From a virus, in IMG/VR virus record IMGVR_UViG_3300010399_000038, positions 7,741 through 71,740 of that record: 64,000 bases of DNA. One strand, 5' to 3'. This document shows, in pieces, positions 3,650 to 59,596 of this stretch. The position numbers and the translations under genes were made by a program. Within the stretch, counting starts at the first letter, position 1. Each line of letters starts with the position of its first letter. Below the pieces are notes generated by a model. That model made no database searches. It had not been told where the DNA came from and saw only the letters and a program-made list of their open reading frames with translations.

Positions 3650-4114
3650 TCAGTCGTCTTTAATGATGCTCTTTCCGATACTTAATTGTGAATTATAAAA
3701 AGCAAGTGCCTGTGCATCTACCGCCGCAACTCTTGAAACAATACAAGCATCAACTAAGGCTCTTATGTTTGTGAATATTGTCCTTCTCTCTGCATCGGTG
3801 CTTCCCATATTAAAATATTCTGCAAATGTGTTATTGAAAATGTATTGACGGTATATGAATATTATTACTTCACCGGGAACATTGTTGATAGTTACATTAG
3901 TTGCATCGGTGGCGGGATTAGCTGCCAATACCTGCGCCCTAAATGCTCTTATCCTTGCCCTACCTGTGCTATCAAGGCCATCTCCTATTTTTGATACTGC
4001 CCATTTCCAATGTCGGTATTGAAAAGTTAAATTAGCACTTATACCAGTAAGGTCACATTGACCAAAGATGTTTAGTGAAAAGATTATGCAGATTGATAAA
4101 AGTATTTTTTTCAT
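3650..4114 (-). CDS. Hypothetical protein with Sec signal peptide
   Basis: N-terminus MKKILLSICIIFSLNIFG|Q. Confidence 0.7.
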   Translation of the reverse strand: MKKILLSICIIFSLNIFGQCDLTGISANLTFQYRHWKWAVSKIGDGLDSTGRARIRAFRAQVLAANPATDATNVTINNVPGEVIIFIYRQYIFNNTFAEYFNMGSTDAERRTIFTNIRALVDACIVSRVAAVDAQALAFYNSQLSIGKSIIKDD

Positions 4115-4115
4115 T

Positions 4116-4778
4116 TTAATTAACTATTGGGTTAAGAATTATAAAGCTTGAGCCATCATAAATTAGCATACACCACATCAAAGCTAAAATATCCCCCGTT
4201 GCAGTTGCGGTGCTTACTCTTTTATTTATTGTCTTTACTCCAAGTCCATTTACACTTATGGTGCAACCTGTAGTATTAGCGGTGTTTGCCCGAAACAAAA
4301 CTATCATGCCTGTTGTGTACGATGCTGGTATTGGGCTTGCAGTGATAACATAACTATCATTTGCCCCGGCATCTAGTCCTACGTAATAGGTAGACTTATT
4401 ATTTAATGCAGTTTGGGTAGCATTGCTGATTGGTTTATTTGCATCACTTGTGTTGTCTGCGTTTGGTAATCCAACATCTGCTTGAGTAATACTTATGTTT
4501 GCATTTAATGCCTTCCCATTTACTGTTAATGTATTTGGAACAGGTGTAAAACCAAGTGAGTTTTGTTTTGCTGAAAGCCCACTATTTGTTTCATTTCTTA
4601 ATACCTGTGCTGAATCTTTCAATCTTATTGGAGTAACGGAGGTTGATGTTGCAGAATTTCTATAAGTAATAATCCTTGCTGTATCTCCATTTTCTTTAAG
4701 TGCTAAAATAGTATCAGCAACAACTTGCGAATTTGCTATATAAGAAAAAAACAACGTTATTAATAGGAATAATCTCAT
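4116..4778 (-). CDS. Tail-fibre-like protein with signal peptide
   Basis: MRLFLLITLFFSYIANS|Q, then phage fibre motifs TVNGKALNANISITQADVGL and NTSDANKPISNATQTALN, plus YTTGMIVLFRANTANT. Confidence 0.7.
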   Translation of the reverse strand: MRLFLLITLFFSYIANSQVVADTILALKENGDTARIITYRNSATSTSVTPIRLKDSAQVLRNETNSGLSAKQNSLGFTPVPNTLTVNGKALNANISITQADVGLPNADNTSDANKPISNATQTALNNKSTYYVGLDAGANDSYVITASPIPASYTTGMIVLFRANTANTTGCTISVNGLGVKTINKRVSTATATGDILALMWCMLIYDGSSFIILNPIVN

Positions 4779-7700
4779 TTATTTTTTAGTTGACTTATTT
4801 CTTTTTTTAGTAATTCAATTTGCTCTTGCTGTTGTTGAACAGAACGCACCAATAGGGGAATTATATCTTCCTTATTTATTCCTAACTTCCCAGTTGAAGG
4901 CGTTAGAAATACACTCCCCGGTAATACCTGTTGAACTTCTTGTGCAATGAAACCTATTTGTCTTCCTTCTCCATGATTTTTCCAACCATCAATAAATTCA
5001 AACGATACTGGCTTTAACCTCATCAACTCATTCAATCCGTAATCCAATGGCATGATTGAGGTCTTAACTGTCCGGTCGCTCACTGGCGCTGACAAAACAC
5101 CGCTGGCATCTGCTAATACAGCCCTATCACCAGTTCCAGCTAAATTTAAAGCTGTAATAACACCACCATTTGAAATCTCAATTCTTGCGGTGTTGTTTGT
5201 TCTTATGGTAAACTTATGGTTGCTATACGTTCCTACAATGCCGTTGCTGCTCTCTGCTCCAAAAAATACCTCTGTTGAGGCCGGGCCGAGTCCGGTAATG
5301 TATGTTGCTGAACCTGCATTTGTAAATCCAATTTGTGCAACTCCTGCAAAAGAAAAAGCCGCTCCTGCATCACCGCCAACTTGTAATGTTGTTTGGGGGT
5401 TTGCATCTCCCATGCCCACTGAACCAGTAAATAAAGCCGCAATATTAGCTGTTGTTGCTCCTGATGCCGTGAATGTAGCTGCGATATTTGTACCCGATGT
5501 AGCGTTGGTATTTGTAACTCCAAATTCTGCCCCAATAATAGTTTGTGCGTTACTTGCATTTGCTCCGCTTCTTAATATTCTCAATCCTCTGCTATTAGTT
5601 AATTGCGCTGTTCCTGTTACAGCAATATCATGTATAATACCACTTGTTAATGAAGATGAGTTCCATAATTCAAGAGTTCCTGTTGTTAGCGAATTGGCGG
5701 TAGTTGTTTGAAATGTTTCTGTATTAGAACTAACCGTCCATGCGTTTAATTCCCCATCATCAAAGGTTAAACTTTGCGTTCCTGTTGGATTTGTTATTCC
5801 ATTCCATGTTGATGAACCACCCGCTACCGTAGTCCATGAAGTAACACCACTACCATTTGTTGTTAATACTTGGTCTGCATCTCCATCATTGGTTGGAAGG
5901 GTTAATGACCATGTTCCTGCTGCTGCTGCGGGTTGAATAGTTACTGTACCAGATGTGTTACCAGTTAATGCAATTGAACCTTTATTTGTTCCTGCTACGC
6001 CAAGTGTCATTAAACCATTGCCAGCTAGAGACATTAACTGAAAATTAGTGGCACTATTTACACCCCATATACTATATTCAGCAACTCTTGTGGCATTAGC
6101 GGCTGTTGTTAGTTTTGATACTACTTGGTTTGAAAGATAATTAGTACCATTATCAGCTTCATTATAAAAATCTAATGAGCCGCCTATACCATTTGCCGCA
6201 GTTCCGCTTGTAGCTCTAACTAATTCCGCTACTGTAACAACAGAATTAGTGCTTGAATAAGTGGCGTTCATTTGCACCGATGTAACTCCCGTTGATTGCG
6301 TACTAAGTGCGACACCACCATTATCACTATGTATATATGCGCCAATACCAGTAGTTGCTTGCGCCTCCAACCCATAAGTACCGCCGCTTGATTGAGCGAA
6401 TAACGCCGTTCCGTTTGTAGAAGTAAAATATGCCGTTATACTTGATGCACCCGATGTCTCTCCATATACTGCTCTATTCTGTGCATTTGTTCCTGTGTGT
6501 GTATTGGAAAAATAAGCAGCGTAAGATATTTCGTTATTATTTGCATTCGCCCCACTTAGACTTGCGTTTAATAATTTTTGAGTCCCTCCCGTCGCTGCTG
6601 TTGAAGTAGATGTTATTGATATTGCAGGGTCACCAGCTAAAGTATTTGCAGTAAATAAAACAGTATTTGCTCCAAGTGTTAATGTTCTATCTGTTGATAC
6701 TGTTCCACCCCATACTACCGCACCACCTGTTTCATTAAGACCTTCGCTGAATGTATATGTTGTTCCTGCTGATGCTGTTTTTCTAACTATCTGTCCAAAT
6801 GTAGGGGATAATGCAACTGTATCTATTCCTAATGCTACAATACCTGCTCCACTATTGTATGGAATAGTGCCTGCAAAAATTCCACCTGATGCGTCTAATG
6901 TTAATTCATCAGTAGATGTTATATTTATTGCCTTTGTCGTCCCTAATCTTATACCGTTTGTTGCTGCCGTGTTGTCAATTTCTATGAATGAGTTCTCTGC
7001 CCCATCTTCTGAAAATAATTGAATTAATGCTTGGTGATAAACCCTGAATTGTGTGTTTCCTAATTCTAAGGCATTAAGGTCATCGGGAGCAAAAAGGTTT
7101 GTTGAAGCCTGCAATACTGTTAATCTTTGCCCATTTGTTGCTTGGTCATAAACTCCAAACTCTCCTGCTCCTGTTGATAATCTTGGGTAAATATCATAAG
7201 CCCCTTGATCGGTTAATTGAAAACTATTCCCATTACCATCAAATGCTCTTGCTCCTGTACTTGAATTATCCTGTACTCCAAATAATGAATCTGTATTGCT
7301 TCCACCGCCTGCTGCCATTGTAATTATATTCCCTGTTGCATCAAATCCTAATGCTCCAACTGCTGTTCCTGAAAAAGAAGTGGTAAGCAAATATTTACTC
7401 CAATTCCATTGACCTGTTTGAAGAAGTGTGGCTTGAGTTGCGTATGATTGAAGTGTTGTTCCGCTTGAACCCGCTACTGCTGTTTGGAAATTAATTACAC
7501 TCCCTGATGCCGAATTACCTGTTCCAAGTCCTGAACCAATAGTTAATGCGTGACCTGCTTGGTTTGTTCCTGATTCACCGCTTATTCTCCATGATACATC
7601 TGTTGCTTCTGTTCCTGAAACTCCAACACTTCCTAAATAAAAACTATTGACAACATTTGTTCCTTGAGATGAACCTACGACAAATTGATTGGCTGCTGTG

Positions 7701-23467: not shown

Positions 23468-24238
23468 TTATGTTTTAATTGCCTGCCTGCTTGACTCCTG
23501 ATGAATTTGATATTTTTCAAAAATCGTACTCCCCTTCCATTGGGCAATAGCATTTCTTCTCTCATTATAAAATTCATGCTTGGCATCTCTCGCTGCTCCA
23601 AGTTGCATATGACTTCTCACCGATCTTGCCTTACCATCTTTCCACCAAAGCCATGCGATTACCGCTTCCCTGAATTGAACGGGTACATAATAATCTTGCC
23701 CTTGTTGTGGTGAAGCCACATATTCAACCATCAAATAATCTTCTTGGTAATGTTCGTCTAAAAGAATAACTCCATTATCAACATCAACTTTAAAACTTCC
23801 TGCGAATGGTGCGCCACTTGGAACTCCATAAATATTTGTATAAACATTCCCGTTCCAATAGTTGTACCATACGTTTTGTCCTGAATTAAAATCTGCACCT
23901 ATGGTAGTGTCATCTTGTGTTACGGTTATTCTATCAGGCCATAGGTCGGCAAATGTTGTTAGTTTATCATTATACCAAAGTGGGATGATTTCACCCCTGC
24001 TATTTAATCTTCCAATCTTTGTCCATTTGATATAGTTGGCAGGAAGTGTTACTGTTTTATTTGCATTGACGGGAAGTTTTACCGCCTGCACTTTATAAAA
24101 GAAATCCAACCCAAGATTTTCCATCCCACGAAAAGCTATATGAAAACTTTTAAAGTAATCATTATTACTCTTACCTGCTTCCAATAGATAATCCTGAATG
24201 ATTGAATCCAATGTTATATATGCTTGGTGTTGGCTCAT
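23468..24238 (-). CDS. Tail tubular/ring (adaptor) protein
   Basis: TVTLPANYIKWTKI and YYVPVQFREAVIAW motifs typical of ring proteins; synteny. Confidence 0.65.
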   Translation of the reverse strand: MSQHQAYITLDSIIQDYLLEAGKSNNDYFKSFHIAFRGMENLGLDFFYKVQAVKLPVNANKTVTLPANYIKWTKIGRLNSRGEIIPLWYNDKLTTFADLWPDRITVTQDDTTIGADFNSGQNVWYNYWNGNVYTNIYGVPSGAPFAGSFKVDVDNGVILLDEHYQEDYLMVEYVASPQQGQDYYVPVQFREAVIAWLWWKDGKARSVRSHMQLGAARDAKHEFYNERRNAIAQWKGSTIFEKYQIHQESSRQAIKT

Positions 24239-25428
24239 TAGTATGCTGATATTTTTGACATCCCTCTTAAATTTAATCTATTGTGATTCGTGTTATTGTA
24301 ATGCAATCCATCGGCTGCAAAGCCTGCTGGTATAATTTCCATCTCTGCCGGGGTTGCTGAATTTGTCTCGGCAAGTGCTATTGGAAGATTTGGCCTCACA
24401 TCTGTTAAGTTTGCTATGGCTTCTCTTATTTCCAAATTGATATTATTAATTGCTCCGTCTGAACCCATGTTATACGGAGCGGGTTGAGCATAGTTTATTA
24501 CCCTTGTTACATCAAAAATTAAAACTCCTTCACTATCGCTACTATCGGTTGCTAAGTGTCCGAAGTAATCAATGATGCAGCAATTGGCCGGATTAGTGGT
24601 TGCTCTTATTTCGATAGTATGCGAAGCATTAGTTAATCCACCATAAATTTTTACTCTTGGTTGATAGTCGCCAAATGCTCCGCCTTCCCAACCGGGATAT
24701 GTTTGTTGTGGTGCAATGGTGGATGTTACTGTTTCTTGAAATACGCCGTCTATTCTTACCTCAAAATCTCCAAGATACACGCCGGGATTACTTGTTGTAA
24801 GGCACTGCATATATCCAAGTACCACATGGTCATTGGTGAATGTATAAGACATTGTTCCTGATGTTGGATAAACATTACTGCCGAGTGCAGTTTTGTTTGA
24901 TACACCAAACTGATGTGCTTTATTAAATCCATCAGAAGGGTTGAATGTTTTTAACCATTGCCCCGGAACGGTATATGTTGCCGAACCAGCAGGGATGCCA
25001 GTTTTTAAAAATAAACTACATAGTGTAGCAGTTAATTGGTCTTTGTATGAATCATGGAAAGATGACACATCGCCATTAAGATTTACATCATTTAGCCCTG
25101 TCATTATTGTAACCCCTTTATCTCTATCTATGGCTTGCCCATTTACTATCTCTCTTTGATAGGCTGTTGCAATCCCCGTCCCTGTACCGCCTCTATTAGT
25201 AAGAGCTTTCCCCATCGTGGCTATCATTTTATTGATATAGCTATTTGATGCTGGTATGGCTTCCAACCCCGGATCGGTGTAACTGTCGCCGTAAGCTACA
25301 ATATCTGTTACTCCTGAAAAATCAACCGTCCCATCATTCCCGCTTGACTCTTCAAAATAATCCTGCCTTCTTCTTCCGAAGCCGGATGTTTTCTGTTGTA
25401 ATATTTTTGTTGCCGAAATGCCTAACAT
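24238..25428 (-). CDS. SGNH/GDSL hydrolase in tail module
   Basis: Blocks GDSY, G, GLND and DGLH are present. Likely start MLGIS at 25428, overlapping the groES stop. Confidence 0.85.
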   Translation of the reverse strand: MLGISATKILQQKTSGFGRRRQDYFEESSGNDGTVDFSGVTDIVAYGDSYTDPGLEAIPASNSYINKMIATMGKALTNRGGTGTGIATAYQREIVNGQAIDRDKGVTIMTGLNDVNLNGDVSSFHDSYKDQLTATLCSLFLKTGIPAGSATYTVPGQWLKTFNPSDGFNKAHQFGVSNKTALGSNVYPTSGTMSYTFTNDHVVLGYMQCLTTSNPGVYLGDFEVRIDGVFQETVTSTIAPQQTYPGWEGGAFGDYQPRVKIYGGLTNASHTIEIRATTNPANCCIIDYFGHLATDSSDSEGVLIFDVTRVINYAQPAPYNMGSDGAINNINLEIREAIANLTDVRPNLPIALAETNSATPAEMEIIPAGFAADGLHYNNTNHNRLNLRGMSKISAY

Positions 25429-25673
25429 AATGCTAATATTGCATCTTCTTCCATTATAAAATGTGATTCCCCATTGATAATAAATTCTTCCCCCCAATCC
25501 TTAACCCTGAATCCAACATCTCCAATCTTTACTTTTGTTACCTTATCTCCTACATCTACTATCTGCCCCTTGTTACTTAATTTTTGTGCGCTATCAGGGA
25601 TTATCAAACCGCCTTCTGTTACCGAACTTCCTTTGAATGGTTTGAATAATATTTTTTTGTTTACTGTTTTCAT
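25422..25673 (-). CDS. groES: Co-chaperonin GroES-like
   Basis: TEGGLIIPDSA mobile loop, GQIVDVG, VKIGD and MEEDAILA. Confidence 0.9.
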   Translation of the reverse strand: MKTVNKKILFKPFKGSSVTEGGLIIPDSAQKLSNKGQIVDVGDKVTKVKIGDVGFRVKDWGEEFIINGESHFIMEEDAILALC

Positions 25674-44425: not shown

Positions 44426-44833
44426 ATGCTTAACATATCTGCAACACGGATTTTAAAAGAGAAAACAGCAGGCTTCGGGAGGAGAAGACAAGACTATTTT
44501 GATACAGCCCCATCATCAATATCCTACACAGCAGAGATTGATCCGGGCATAGGTGGTACAAAAGTTTTTTCAAGTGTAGCGGGGTGGACGCCTGACTCTC
44601 CTTTTAATTTCCCAACGGCGGCAGGAGACCCATTGCAAACACGAAACGCTAATGATGCAAGCCCGATTACTATGATAGCCGGGTATAATAATGCTGCGAA
44701 AAGTTCAGTAGTTATATTGTTAAAAAACGGAGTCATACAACAATCAAAAGCAGTAACCGGCGTATCCCCGCCACAGACATTTGATCCTTTAGCAATAACC
44801 AATGGAGATACTGTAACACTAAGAGGGAATTAA
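44426..44833 (+). CDS. Hypothetical protein sharing its N-terminal peptide with the SGNH tail-module protein
   Basis: Starts MLNISATRILKEKTAGFGRRRQDYF; beta-rich C-terminus. Confidence 0.7.
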   Translation: MLNISATRILKEKTAGFGRRRQDYFDTAPSSISYTAEIDPGIGGTKVFSSVAGWTPDSPFNFPTAAGDPLQTRNANDASPITMIAGYNNAAKSSVVILLKNGVIQQSKAVTGVSPPQTFDPLAITNGDTVTLRGN

Positions 44834-45275: not shown

Positions 45276-45290
45276 TGTAATGATTTTAAT

Positions 45291-45650
45291 GGTAAAAAAA
45301 CTTTACTATACTACGCATCACACTGCTAAACCGAGCGTCACATGACGTTACGAGACGTTACTTTGCTGGACAGGGCGACACCACGCATGACTTGACATTA
45401 CTTTGCTTTGCCATGAAAAAATATCTTTGTCGGATTAAAAGAACTTTACTTCGCAAAACTGTGCATTTACGCAACTATGCTGTGCCTTACCAAACACGAC
45501 TATACATTGCTATACCCCACAAGACAATACTTAATTTTAATAATATTACGGATTAAAAGAACTATACTAAACGCTACTGAGCAAGACACTACGGCACGTC
45601 GCCTCACGATACCAGACGGTGCTCCACTCCGCAGAACACCACCATGCTAC
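45291..45650 (-). ncRNA. Array of three putative guide-RNA units with 5-nt NNN-GY periodicity (VIPR-like)
   Basis: On +, RC recurs every 5 nt at 45300-45414 (23 periods), 45443-45533 (18, one of them 6 nt) and 45561-45650 (18). Two units abut an identical cggattaaaagaac; the third abuts a degenerate ggtaaaaaaac. Confidence 0.85.
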
Positions 45651-46216
45651 AATGTTTTTTCTAATGATATTAATTTAAATCTTCCAAAATACCCGTTGTT
45701 CGTTGGCCTGTAACTTCCGATGCCTACATAATTCCCGGTTGTTTCAATGAGTTCTGTAATCATTTCCTTTGTCAAAGTTCCGTTATCCAATATCATATCA
45801 AACTCGGCTTTCCATGTTGACCATTTAGGGCGGATAACCATTACCCTTGCTTTGACGTTTTTGTTCACGGCTGATCGCTTATCAATTTCATCATACTCCG
45901 GCATCGTTATTTCTTCCGGGGAAACTCTCAACACGGCAGCGATAACGCCTTTCATACTTCTTTTGGAATTTCCGACTTTACTTTTCAGATAGCCGCCACC
46001 GTTAATGAAAGCGATTCTTAGCTGTTCTGCGGGGATGAAACATTTGTCGGCCTTATTGCGGTAGCAATGAAATTCAGCCCGTACAGCATCTTGCTGATTA
46101 ACGTCAGGGCGTTCTATAATGTGCTTCCTGTTTTTCTCCCATTCTTCTAACTTTTGGTCATCCATGCGATGCTGCATGTAGGGAGTGATTCCTTCGATTT
46201 TAACATTGTAAATCAT
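45647..46216 (-). CDS. Stand-alone Cas7/RAMP-like protein (189 aa), putative RNA-guided effector
   Basis: Likely start MIYNVKIEGITPYMQH (RRM beta1). FIPAEQLRIAF (IP...LR helix), thumb region IDKRSAVNKNVKARVMVIRP, and a G-rich loop GNYVGIGSYRPTNNGYFGRF at the C-terminus. Confidence 0.8.
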   Translation of the reverse strand: MIYNVKIEGITPYMQHRMDDQKLEEWEKNRKHIIERPDVNQQDAVRAEFHCYRNKADKCFIPAEQLRIAFINGGGYLKSKVGNSKRSMKGVIAAVLRVSPEEITMPEYDEIDKRSAVNKNVKARVMVIRPKWSTWKAEFDMILDNGTLTKEMITELIETTGNYVGIGSYRPTNNGYFGRFKLISLEKTL

Positions 46217-46330
46217 GTCTTGCAAGTTTAAGATTATACGGCGCAGGGCTGCAAGACACACGGTTTCCCGTTGGGAGGAATCCCACTACGCCGTAAATAT
46301 GTTTATTGATTTTAAACGTGTCTTGCATAT
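46216..46330 (-). promoter_or_regulatory. Structured leader with an antisense element and two complementary target sites
   Basis: Stem 46237-46246/46286-46295 encloses tgcaagacac (46250-46259). This is the reverse complement of gtgtcttgca (46318-46327) and of tgtcttgca (46216-46224, at the start codon). Confidence 0.65.
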
Positions 46331-46342
46331 TGTAAATATAAA

Positions 46343-58474: not shown

Positions 58475-59596
58475 AATTTAGAAATGTGTATTTATGATTA
58501 GAACGTATAAAAGGAAGTTAATTATAAATAAAGAACAAGAGAAAAGAATTAACTCTTGGATTGGGGCTTGTCGGTGTGTGTATAATATGTCTCTTGAAAT
58601 TCAGATTTCTGCAAAAAAGGCTGGATTTCCGTATGTTAACAAGTATGAGCTTATGCGTCAACTAACTACCATCAAGGACATAGCATGGATTTCAGACGTG
58701 CCGTCTCAATCTCTTCAAAACGCCGTCGAAAGATTAGATAGGTCATATAAATCCTTCTTTGGTGGTGGTGGATTTCCAAAGTTTGCAGCCAAACGAAAAT
58801 ATAAATCCATACTTATAAAATCAATTAAAATAACTAACGGTATTGTGACTGTTCCTAAAATAGGCAGCGTAAAATTTTTCAAAGACTCTGAAATAATAGG
58901 TATACCAAAAACAGCAACTATAAAAAAAGAGCCAACGGGCTATTTCATTTGTATCGTATGCGACAATGTCCCAAAAAAGTTTGATAGCGAGAACCAAACT
59001 ATCGGACTGGACATGGGCTTGTCGCATTTTTGTGTTGATAGTAATGGAGGGTTTATTTCCAATCCCAAGCACTTCAAAAAATATGAGCGTCAATTACGAA
59101 TCGAAAACAGGTCTTTGGCTCGAAAAAAGAAAGGCTCTAACAGTTGGAAGAAACAAGCTAAACGTTTGTCGTTGCTGCATCACAAAATAGGAAACGTTCG
59201 AAGGGATTTTCTGCACAAGGAAAGCACAAGGATCGCTAAGTCCAATTCAATCGTCTGTTTGGAAGACTTGAATATTGTAGGGATGGCAAGAAACGGCAAC
59301 CTTTCCAAGCACATTCTTGATGCGGGTTGGGGATTATTCAGAACAATGCTTGAATATAAAACAGCCGTTGTTCGGGTAAATCCAAAGCACACTTCCCAAG
59401 CCTGCTCAAAATGCGGCCACGTTGATTCTGTAAGCCGTTTAAGCCAGTCAAATTTCACCTGTACCAATTGTGGTCATTCAGAAAATGCGGACGTAAATGC
59501 CGCTAAAAACATATTACGCAAGGGCATTGCGTTAGGTCGCCAACGTGAGCCAACAGGCTGTGCGTTGACTTTAAATCTTTAAAAGAAGTATGTCAG
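58475..59596 (+). mobile_element. TnpB-only (IS1341-like) element; probable right end at ...GTATGTCA(G)
   Basis: No tnpA nearby. GC-richer structured 3' region ending gaagtatgtca at 59595. Boundaries are approximate. Confidence 0.55.
58494..59582 (+). CDS. tnpB: IS200/IS605-family RNA-guided nuclease TnpB
   Basis: RTYKRKL HTH, RuvC-I IGLDMGL, RuvC-II LEDLNI, CxxC...CxxC Zn finger and RuvC-III NADVNAAKNI. Confidence 0.95.
   Translation: MIRTYKRKLIINKEQEKRINSWIGACRCVYNMSLEIQISAKKAGFPYVNKYELMRQLTTIKDIAWISDVPSQSLQNAVERLDRSYKSFFGGGGFPKFAAKRKYKSILIKSIKITNGIVTVPKIGSVKFFKDSEIIGIPKTATIKKEPTGYFICIVCDNVPKKFDSENQTIGLDMGLSHFCVDSNGGFISNPKHFKKYERQLRIENRSLARKKKGSNSWKKQAKRLSLLHHKIGNVRRDFLHKESTRIAKSNSIVCLEDLNIVGMARNGNLSKHILDAGWGLFRTMLEYKTAVVRVNPKHTSQACSKCGHVDSVSRLSQSNFTCTNCGHSENADVNAAKNILRKGIALGRQREPTGCALTLNL

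Follow-up and report, generated by a model that had tools for sequence, protein, structure and literature searches.

A stand-alone phage VIPR system whose NNN-GY guide repeats appear to carry target triplets

INTRODUCTION

A minimal locus in a 64,000-nt stretch of phage DNA (hereafter the window) encodes a small RAMP protein followed by three guide units built from NNN-GY repeats. The reading we favor, and hold with fair confidence, is that of a stand-alone phage VIPR in which every repeat consists of one target triplet plus GY, the guides have been copied from their targets, and unit 3 is aimed at DUF2188 genes. VIPR systems perform RNA-guided DNA silencing with guides of the form GGY/NN (10.64898/2026.04.26.720920), and the accessible parts of two reports describe type II from Escherichia phage SUSP1 and a Pseudomonas fulva prophage (10.64898/2026.04.26.720920, 10.64898/2026.04.26.720927). 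The VIPR system and the YNNNG repeat consensus are thus already published. What appears to be new here is the register in this branch, the informative third base of the triplet, and the link between an Asp/Ser exchange in the protein and the first G of the repeat; the target class is probably new as well.

LOCUS AND SOURCE GENOME

The virus record is complete (71,740 nt, with inverted terminal repeats). Its terminase matches 87 phage records, at best with 26-27% identity and nearly all in phages of Flavobacterium, Cellulophaga, Tenacibaculum, and Maribacter. The genome collection contains three homologous loci, each in a Bacteroidota MAG, so that the host is most likely a member of the Bacteroidota. 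No close cultured phage was found, the best Vipr match being at 27.5% identity. A preliminary description of this DNA had reported a 189-aa ORF with RAMP/Cas7 hallmark motifs and an absence of CRISPR and cas genes. The ORF was found again with all the motifs cited (Table 1), the complete 71.7-kb genome contains neither Cas1 nor RVT_1 (RT), and none of the 20 largest of its 46 direct-repeat families is a CRISPR-like array. Searches of Pfam, PADLOC, and Rfam gave no family that names any part of the locus.

Table 1. Features of the VIPR locus in the window
Feature	Position	Strand	Remarks
Promoter-like site and structured leader upstream of vipr	46217..46336	-	site at 46336-46309, 10/12
vipr gene	45647..46216	-	189-aa RAMP protein; G-loop GIGSYRP; Ser in place of SUSP1 D177
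Guide unit 1	45561..45650	-	18 NNN-GY periods; begins inside the vipr stop codon
Unit 1, triplets 1-9	45601..45645	-	tentative match to a T4-like terminase gene motif
Unit 1 U-rich 3' tail	45549..45562	-	identical with unit 2 tail; direct-repeat family D8
Guide unit 2	45443..45533	-	18 periods, one 6-nt step
Unit 2 3' tail	45431..45444	-	same as unit 1 tail
Guide unit 3	45300..45414	-	23 periods
Unit 3, triplets 1-9	45370..45414	-	match to the first nine codons of DUF2188 (PF09954)
Unit 3 U-rich tail, degenerate	45288..45301	-	degenerate

The leader (46217-46330) has a folding z of -3.24 (0/200 shuffles), and a 10-nt segment within it can pair with two alternative partners, one of which adjoins the vipr start codon. 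It belongs to no Rfam family, with two weak matches far below threshold. It is retained in the 96%-identical relative L001, and five other relatives have an upstream guide in its place.

VIPR PROTEIN AND ITS G-LOOP

The window protein matches SUSP1 Vipr (PDB 36pp_D) over residues 2-182 with 27% identity (E 4.3e-9), and this is its sole structure-chain sequence match below E 0.7. A predicted model (pLDDT 82.8) resembles chains of Csm3, Cmr, and type VII Cas7 with TM about 0.5 in a structure library that ends before the Vipr entries. Homologues make up 798 of 823 candidates, a profile search returned 4,442 representatives (27 at E <1e-30), and a gene-strand NNN-GY array lies at most 1.5 kb from the gene at 77 of the 79 distinct loci with at least 45% identity. 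The likeness to VIPR that the preliminary description had noted, and the two checks it proposed, a comparison with Cas7/RAMP proteins and a search for periodic arrays beside homologues, are therefore borne out. A small RAMP protein homologous to Vipr and built of an RRM core, a thumb, and a G-loop, a virus-borne minimal locus without CRISPR or cas genes, adjacent pentanucleotide guides of a listed consensus, and a 3' tail after the repeats are all present, and on sequence grounds membership in the VIPR family is supported, in a type other than type II.

SUSP1 residues H17, E71, R138, and R179 are retained in the window protein, W178 is replaced by Tyr, and, in the alignment with 36pp_D, D177 is replaced by Ser. 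According to the accessible part of the SUSP1 cryo-EM study, D177 of the G-loop reads the first G of GGY (10.64898/2026.04.26.720927). Ser stands at this place in 119 of the 120 top homologues, the remaining one not having been parsed. The mean frequency of G at repeat position 1 is 0.14 (0-0.29) over 82 loci of the window's branch and 0.89 (0.17-1.0) over 50 distinct Asp-type viral loci (of 80 retrieved, 51 were distinct and had a motif that could be parsed), a contrast that is essentially one between two clades. In a quick tree, which serves for orientation, the window protein falls in a group of 29 rows (SH-aLRT 93), and Ser is found beyond this group as well. L303 is an exception to the link, as its Asp-type Vipr is accompanied by arrays with only 17% G at position 1. 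Overall, the correlation between the Asp/Ser exchange and the first G of the repeat fits what the SUSP1 structure would suggest.

GUIDE ARRAYS

On the minus strand, G-Y recurs at 5-nt spacing in runs of 18 (45647-45561), 13+5 (45530-45443), and 23 (45411-45300), the second being interrupted by a single 6-nt step. No further 5-periodic G-Y run of at least 6 occurs anywhere in the window, and the longest runs in order-2 Markov simulations of it were 4-6 in 30 of 30. The 58 of 59 exact periods reported at first correspond to 55 of 56 inner steps once the leading triplets are counted, and the shared 14-nt tail of units 1 and 2, with a degenerate tail behind unit 3, is as had been described. The tails are short and U-rich, and the guides themselves fold no better than shuffles (z 0.23, -1.45, -0.51). 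In the sub-branch of L006, L007, L038, and L045, the tails are longer, GC-rich, and self-complementary instead of U-rich.

The base preceding GY is A in 21, T in 16, C in 11, and G in 8 of the 56 repeats. The GY/NNN repeat, put forward earlier as a possible distinct subtype, is real and extends over the branch, but it is not unreported, because YNNNG is named once as an alternative in the Methods of the discovery paper (10.64898/2026.04.26.720920). Non-canonical repeats such as WGT/NN appear in the accessible part of another report (10.64898/2026.10.21.760802). The YNNNG and WGT/NN loci resemble the present one in having the same or a close repeat consensus beside Vipr proteins; however, the accessible text gives the consensus only, without a targeting rule, targets, or a residue link.

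Our guide set comprises 198 guides from 82 loci, with a few overlapping chains remaining in it; the median length is 14 repeats, 10 guides have at least 40, and the longest has 150. Guides of up to 30 repeats are mentioned in the accessible part of the structure paper (10.64898/2026.04.26.720927). In-phase arrays of 70-150 repeats were noted at L088:2225-2972, L092:2485-2961, L020:4580-4951, L010:3610-3961, and L095:1685-2031, that of L088 with about 110 stop-free triplets and an internal duplication. Vipr relatives at 85-97% identity have no guide in common with the window, which points to wholesale guide replacement. Among 631 flanking ORFs of the branch loci, no neighbor and no accessory or acquisition gene is conserved.

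TARGETS OF THE GUIDES

Taken in order, the variable triplets read as protein-like text, and this reading of triplets as target codons is absent from the preliminary description. Unit 3 resembled the start of DUF2188, which was then tested, the family thus being chosen on this resemblance and not blind. The DUF2188 genes came from Bacteroidota (54 of 301 genomes and 12 of 251 genomes), and 35 loci were used. At a step of 3 target bases per repeat, triplets 1-9 of unit 3 match two of these loci at 18/18, beginning at the start codon, one at 17, one at 16, and six at 15; steps of 2, 4, and 5 reach at most 14/18, and 300 shuffles of the triplet order reach at most 16/18. The two 18/18 targets (G274 and G534) are the same element in two genomes. 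Five of the 198 guides match this DUF2188 start at 14/14, at step 3 and at none of the other steps, and they come from four phages (records: window, L002, L029, L030, and L031). L002 carries a second, shorter guide to the same start, and in L029 and L030 the DUF2188 block is nearly the whole guide. In 3.2 Mb, 68 matches at step 3 compare with 17, 25, and 20 at other steps; no such excess was seen in another 1.68 Mb (7 matches at step 3 vs. 9, 7, and 5). These matches, all to non-cognate targets, indicate that a register of five guide bases to three target bases applies to the window's branch. The position of the DUF2188 block is a difficulty, because it occupies the 5' end of unit 3 (9 of 23 repeats) and SUSP1 complexes, according to the accessible part of the structure paper, engage first at the guide tail (10.64898/2026.04.26.720927).

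Of the ten DUF2188 loci scoring at least 15, nine lie within 1.5 kb of a defense-annotated gene, and only L125 has no annotated defense neighbor. These neighbors include type I R-M subunits, PDC-S06, QatA, PDC-S34 with Dsr2, an E1-like ThiF, a pPIWI-associated nuclease, and PDC-S46 with a PDC-M36A-like gene, and DUF2188 loci of lower score precede CBASS. The accessible part of a preprint on CBASS regulation describes DUF2188 as uncharacterized and as earlier linked to defense (10.1101/2022.04.27.489752). As to purpose, we lean slightly towards unit 3 serving anti-defense and not the silencing of a rival mobile element.

A possible though tentative alternative is that this is an ordinary inter-element VIPR, with its DUF2188 target on a rival prophage, satellite, or island and not in host immunity. 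VIPR targets in print are satellites, prophages, and other VIPRs, as far as the accessible texts go (10.64898/2026.04.26.720920, 10.64898/2026.10.15.759431), DUF2188 genes occur on four to five viral contigs, and other guides of the branch match phage genes. However, against unit 3 no viral DUF2188 start scores above 14/18, two of the three annotated viral genes stand directly before Thoeris or CBASS genes, and the cellular matches are found in type I R-M loci and defense cassettes. Separately, in the type I R-M loci L122, L127, L130, L134, and L137, DUF2188 lies between hsdS and a variable defense gene (PDC-S06, QatA, PDC-S34, or CBASS), as if it might mark an insertion hotspot.

Further guides in the branch have matches in rival vipr genes, in an exonuclease gene of a phage, in a polymerase-X-like gene, and, in another phage, in a non-coding stretch. 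Together with the DUF2188 start, these matches bear out the early guess that competing elements or host genes are targeted. The guide L012:4565-4616 has its matches in the stretch that encodes the G-loop, both in four rival vipr genes and in its own vipr, and the guide L006:4561-4617 matches the exonuclease gene directly behind it (L006:4657-5268).

In unit 1, triplets 1-9 match a T4-like terminase motif, kept in the close terminase family, at 18/18 NN and 5/9 third bases. This is one of two exact matches in viral contigs (the second is in 60% GC DNA and does not extend), about one being expected by chance in a rough estimate with an assumed collection size, and over the whole of unit 1 the terminase match reaches only 24/34. 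A terminase target for unit 1 is accordingly tentative and may be due to chance. The idea that unit 1 represents a type I methyltransferase motif was rejected, with no match in 30 HsdM loci. For the unit 1 motif in 401 Bacteroidota genomes, the two one-mismatch matches equal the two control matches and are ascribed to chance. Unit 2 has no match at 15/16 in 3.8 Mb. As for self-targeting, the window's three guides reach at best 14-15/18 in their own genome.

INFORMATION IN THE THIRD BASE

Ten guide-target pairs offer 52 sites that are not four-fold degenerate, and at 51 of them the third base leaves the amino acid of the target codon unchanged (25.9 expected). The effective sample is smaller than these counts, because six of the ten pairs lie on one and the same DUF2188 site, perhaps through common descent, and because the pairs were hand-picked from NN matches (17-18/18 matches plus two shorter DUF2188 guides). 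The sole non-synonymous site is the first triplet of one guide, and when one pair with a target outside any clear ORF is left out the count is 45 of 46, with about half expected. That pair is also the closest, with 20/20 NN and 8/10 third bases identical (binomial p 0.0014). Over all pairs, whose targets are non-cognate, 40 of 83 third bases are identical, and between unit 3 and its best DUF2188 match, likewise non-cognate, 4 of 9 differ.

A signal is also seen in the guides by themselves. Across 155 blocks, the codon score in the triplet frame is 0.004, compared with -0.047 +/- 0.009 when third bases are shuffled (about 5.7 s.d.), and stops make up 4.3% compared with 5.5 +/- 0.3% (about 4 s.d.). 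Three other frames likewise lie 1.5-3 s.d. above the shuffle in the codon-score test, and the codon signal is individually significant in 7 of 15 long blocks and not in the other 8. Because third bases are synonymous, 8/10 identical in the closest pair, and accompanied by stop depletion, the freed base, judged from the sequences, carries target information, and each repeat represents one target triplet plus GY.

The third base was probably copied from the target when the guide was made and is weakly read, since the coding targets are wobble-aligned and the third base changes faster. Among related guide copies, of which only five pairs were usable and too few to separate pairing from copying, the third base changes more than NN, with 6 transitions at 24 sites in three pairs. 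In class 1 crRNAs, the flipped sixth base equals the target since spacers are copied from the target.

It is rather unlikely, although several observations speak for it, that the code has no skip, so that the third base pairs, each protomer reads three contiguous bases with only GY looped out, and selection for pairing with tolerance of transitions keeps the third base. Loss of the Asp that reads the first G would free this base, and the closest pair has its 8/10 identity. The L012 guide matches its own vipr at 18/18 NN with third bases at 2/8, compared with 6/8 in a rival; there its own gene shows a shift in GC3 (6/9 vs. 28/160, p 0.0015), as does that of L095 (7/9 vs. 49/160), as if by escape through synonymous change. 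The L006 guide is similar, matching its own exonuclease at 17/18 NN with third bases at 2/8, all differences being synonymous. However, the accessible account of SUSP1 describes a pocket into which the skipped base is flipped by the thumb, and thumb residue R138 is retained here. In addition, all identified coding targets are wobble-aligned, which full pairing would not need, the third base changes more than NN between related copies, and there are only two cases of self-avoidance, L012 and L095 possibly representing one event. A combination in which the full triplet is read without a skip, GY is inserted in a templated manner, and DUF2188-directed guides provide broad anti-defense in Bacteroidota phages is unlikely.

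That the third base is simply neutral, a relaxed position (NGY/NN) without information, is very improbable. YNNNG stands in print as a mere alternative consensus, the third bases are A/T-rich like the genomes, and 8 of 15 long blocks are without significant codon signal, but the 45/46 synonymous sites, the 8/10 identity in a 20/20 match, and the stop depletion disfavor it. Finally, a repeat of microsatellite type, or an orphan Cas7 with repeats nearby by chance, which the lack of database families for the parts might suggest, can practically be dismissed in view of runs beyond those of simulations, the SUSP1 Vipr match, the DUF2188 matches, and the arrays beside nearly all close homologues.

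PROPOSED MECHANISM

In the copied-triplet reading that we favor, the locus would be transcribed to give three guide RNAs, and Vipr would polymerize with one subunit per 5-nt repeat, both by analogy with SUSP1. One sequencing run, sampled to a small share, covered parts of related vipr genes and no part of the array, and nothing is concluded from it. One protomer per 5-nt period, as the preliminary description had proposed, is what the SUSP1 cryo-EM shows in its accessible part (10.64898/2026.04.26.720927). Vipr would then align the guide with double-stranded DNA, each repeat covering three bases of the target, and would presumably block transcription without cutting, because there is no nuclease partner. 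With Ser in place of Asp in the G-loop, the protein would no longer hold the first G of the repeat, and the third base of the target would stand there instead. Guides would most likely be made by copying target triplets, the third base being tolerated or weakly read, so that the register would still favor the wobble positions of codons.

The guides may be pieced together from blocks, each about 8-10 triplets long and directed at a conserved motif. Unit 3 would aim at the DUF2188 start; this small gene lies in or at the head of many Bacteroidota defense cassettes, and because DUF2188 heads many different cassettes, one guide could dampen whichever system follows. For other guides of the branch, the targets would be rival phages and the vipr genes of rivals.

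COMPARISON WITH KNOWN SYSTEMS

The window system exhibits considerable similarities to type II of SUSP1, but there are also clear differences. Both are phage-borne and have a homologous RAMP protein with the four retained residues and an aromatic residue at W178, several guides of about 100 nt made of 5-nt repeats behind the gene, and, by the matches above, three target bases per repeat. The published system needs no PAM, according to the accessible texts (10.64898/2026.04.26.720920, 10.64898/2026.04.26.720927). Unlike SUSP1, where G stands at position 1 in 39 of 50 repeats of four arrays and Asp is found in the G-loop, the window has G there in 8 of 56, Ser in the G-loop, and an NNN-GY repeat whose freed base follows the target. 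SUSP1 also has vap1 and a pseudoknot tail, whereas the window has a short U-rich tail and its branch has no conserved vap neighbor in the 631 flanking ORFs; guides of 18-23 repeats, or up to 150 in relatives, and probable Bacteroidota hosts are further differences. The lack of vap would fit one of the seven VIPR types, the one without a described vap.

Class 1 CRISPR Cas7/Csm3 backbones share the RAMP fold, with TM about 0.5 for the predicted model, but the window differs in that it lacks CRISPR repeats, Cas1, and any other cas gene and has a 5-nt period with interspersed scaffold. Vipr-targeting and solo vrRNAs are described in the accessible part of the competition paper, where host targets are REP decoys and not defense operons (10.64898/2026.10.15.759431); guides against rival vipr genes together with self-avoidance are also seen in L012. 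The accessible main text of that paper mentions neither DUF2188 nor restriction-modification or CBASS (10.64898/2026.10.15.759431), and the supplement of the discovery paper contains no mention of DUF2188 or Bacteroid (10.64898/2026.04.26.720920). A literature search outside subscription journals found nothing on third-base information in vrRNAs and nothing on VIPR aimed at host defense operons.

IMPLICATIONS

The accessible parts of the VIPR papers leave the origin of the guides unexplained (10.64898/2026.04.26.720920, 10.64898/2026.04.26.720927, 10.64898/2026.10.15.759431). The making of canonical guides would leave no trace, because the skipped base is overwritten by G. In the window's branch a guide apparently discloses its entire target, an indication of templated writing or of a three-base code. 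With a third base that can be read, both the skip rule and the way in which guides arise become open to direct test. Targets should also be easier to find, because the guides translate into protein motifs. That four phages carry guides to the DUF2188 start suggests an RNA-guided form of anti-defense able to act on unrelated immune systems, and it hints at DUF2188 as a shared control point of defense islands. In addition, a 189-aa Vipr without an accessory gene and with relaxed repeat rules might, by analogy, provide a small programmable DNA binder.

OTHER REPEAT MOTIFS AND NEIGHBORING GENES

Further repeat motifs were seen beside distant Vipr homologues. CTC/NN arrays lie behind those of L015 (5065-5260), L016 (5065-5200), and L019 (4856), which have about 25% identity and Arg at the D177 place, and L021 has GAC/NN arrays. 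An apparent reverse-strand array in L021 was rejected and not counted, as it is the GAC/NN array on the gene strand. In the window, the ORF at 44426-44833 (+), just past the array on the opposite strand, and that at 24238-25497 (-) have a similar N-terminus with a triple-Arg motif and otherwise differ. An IS200/605-type transposase-like gene (phrog_506) is located at 58494-59582 (+), and an ORF of similar size is found outside the window at G000 3952-5082.
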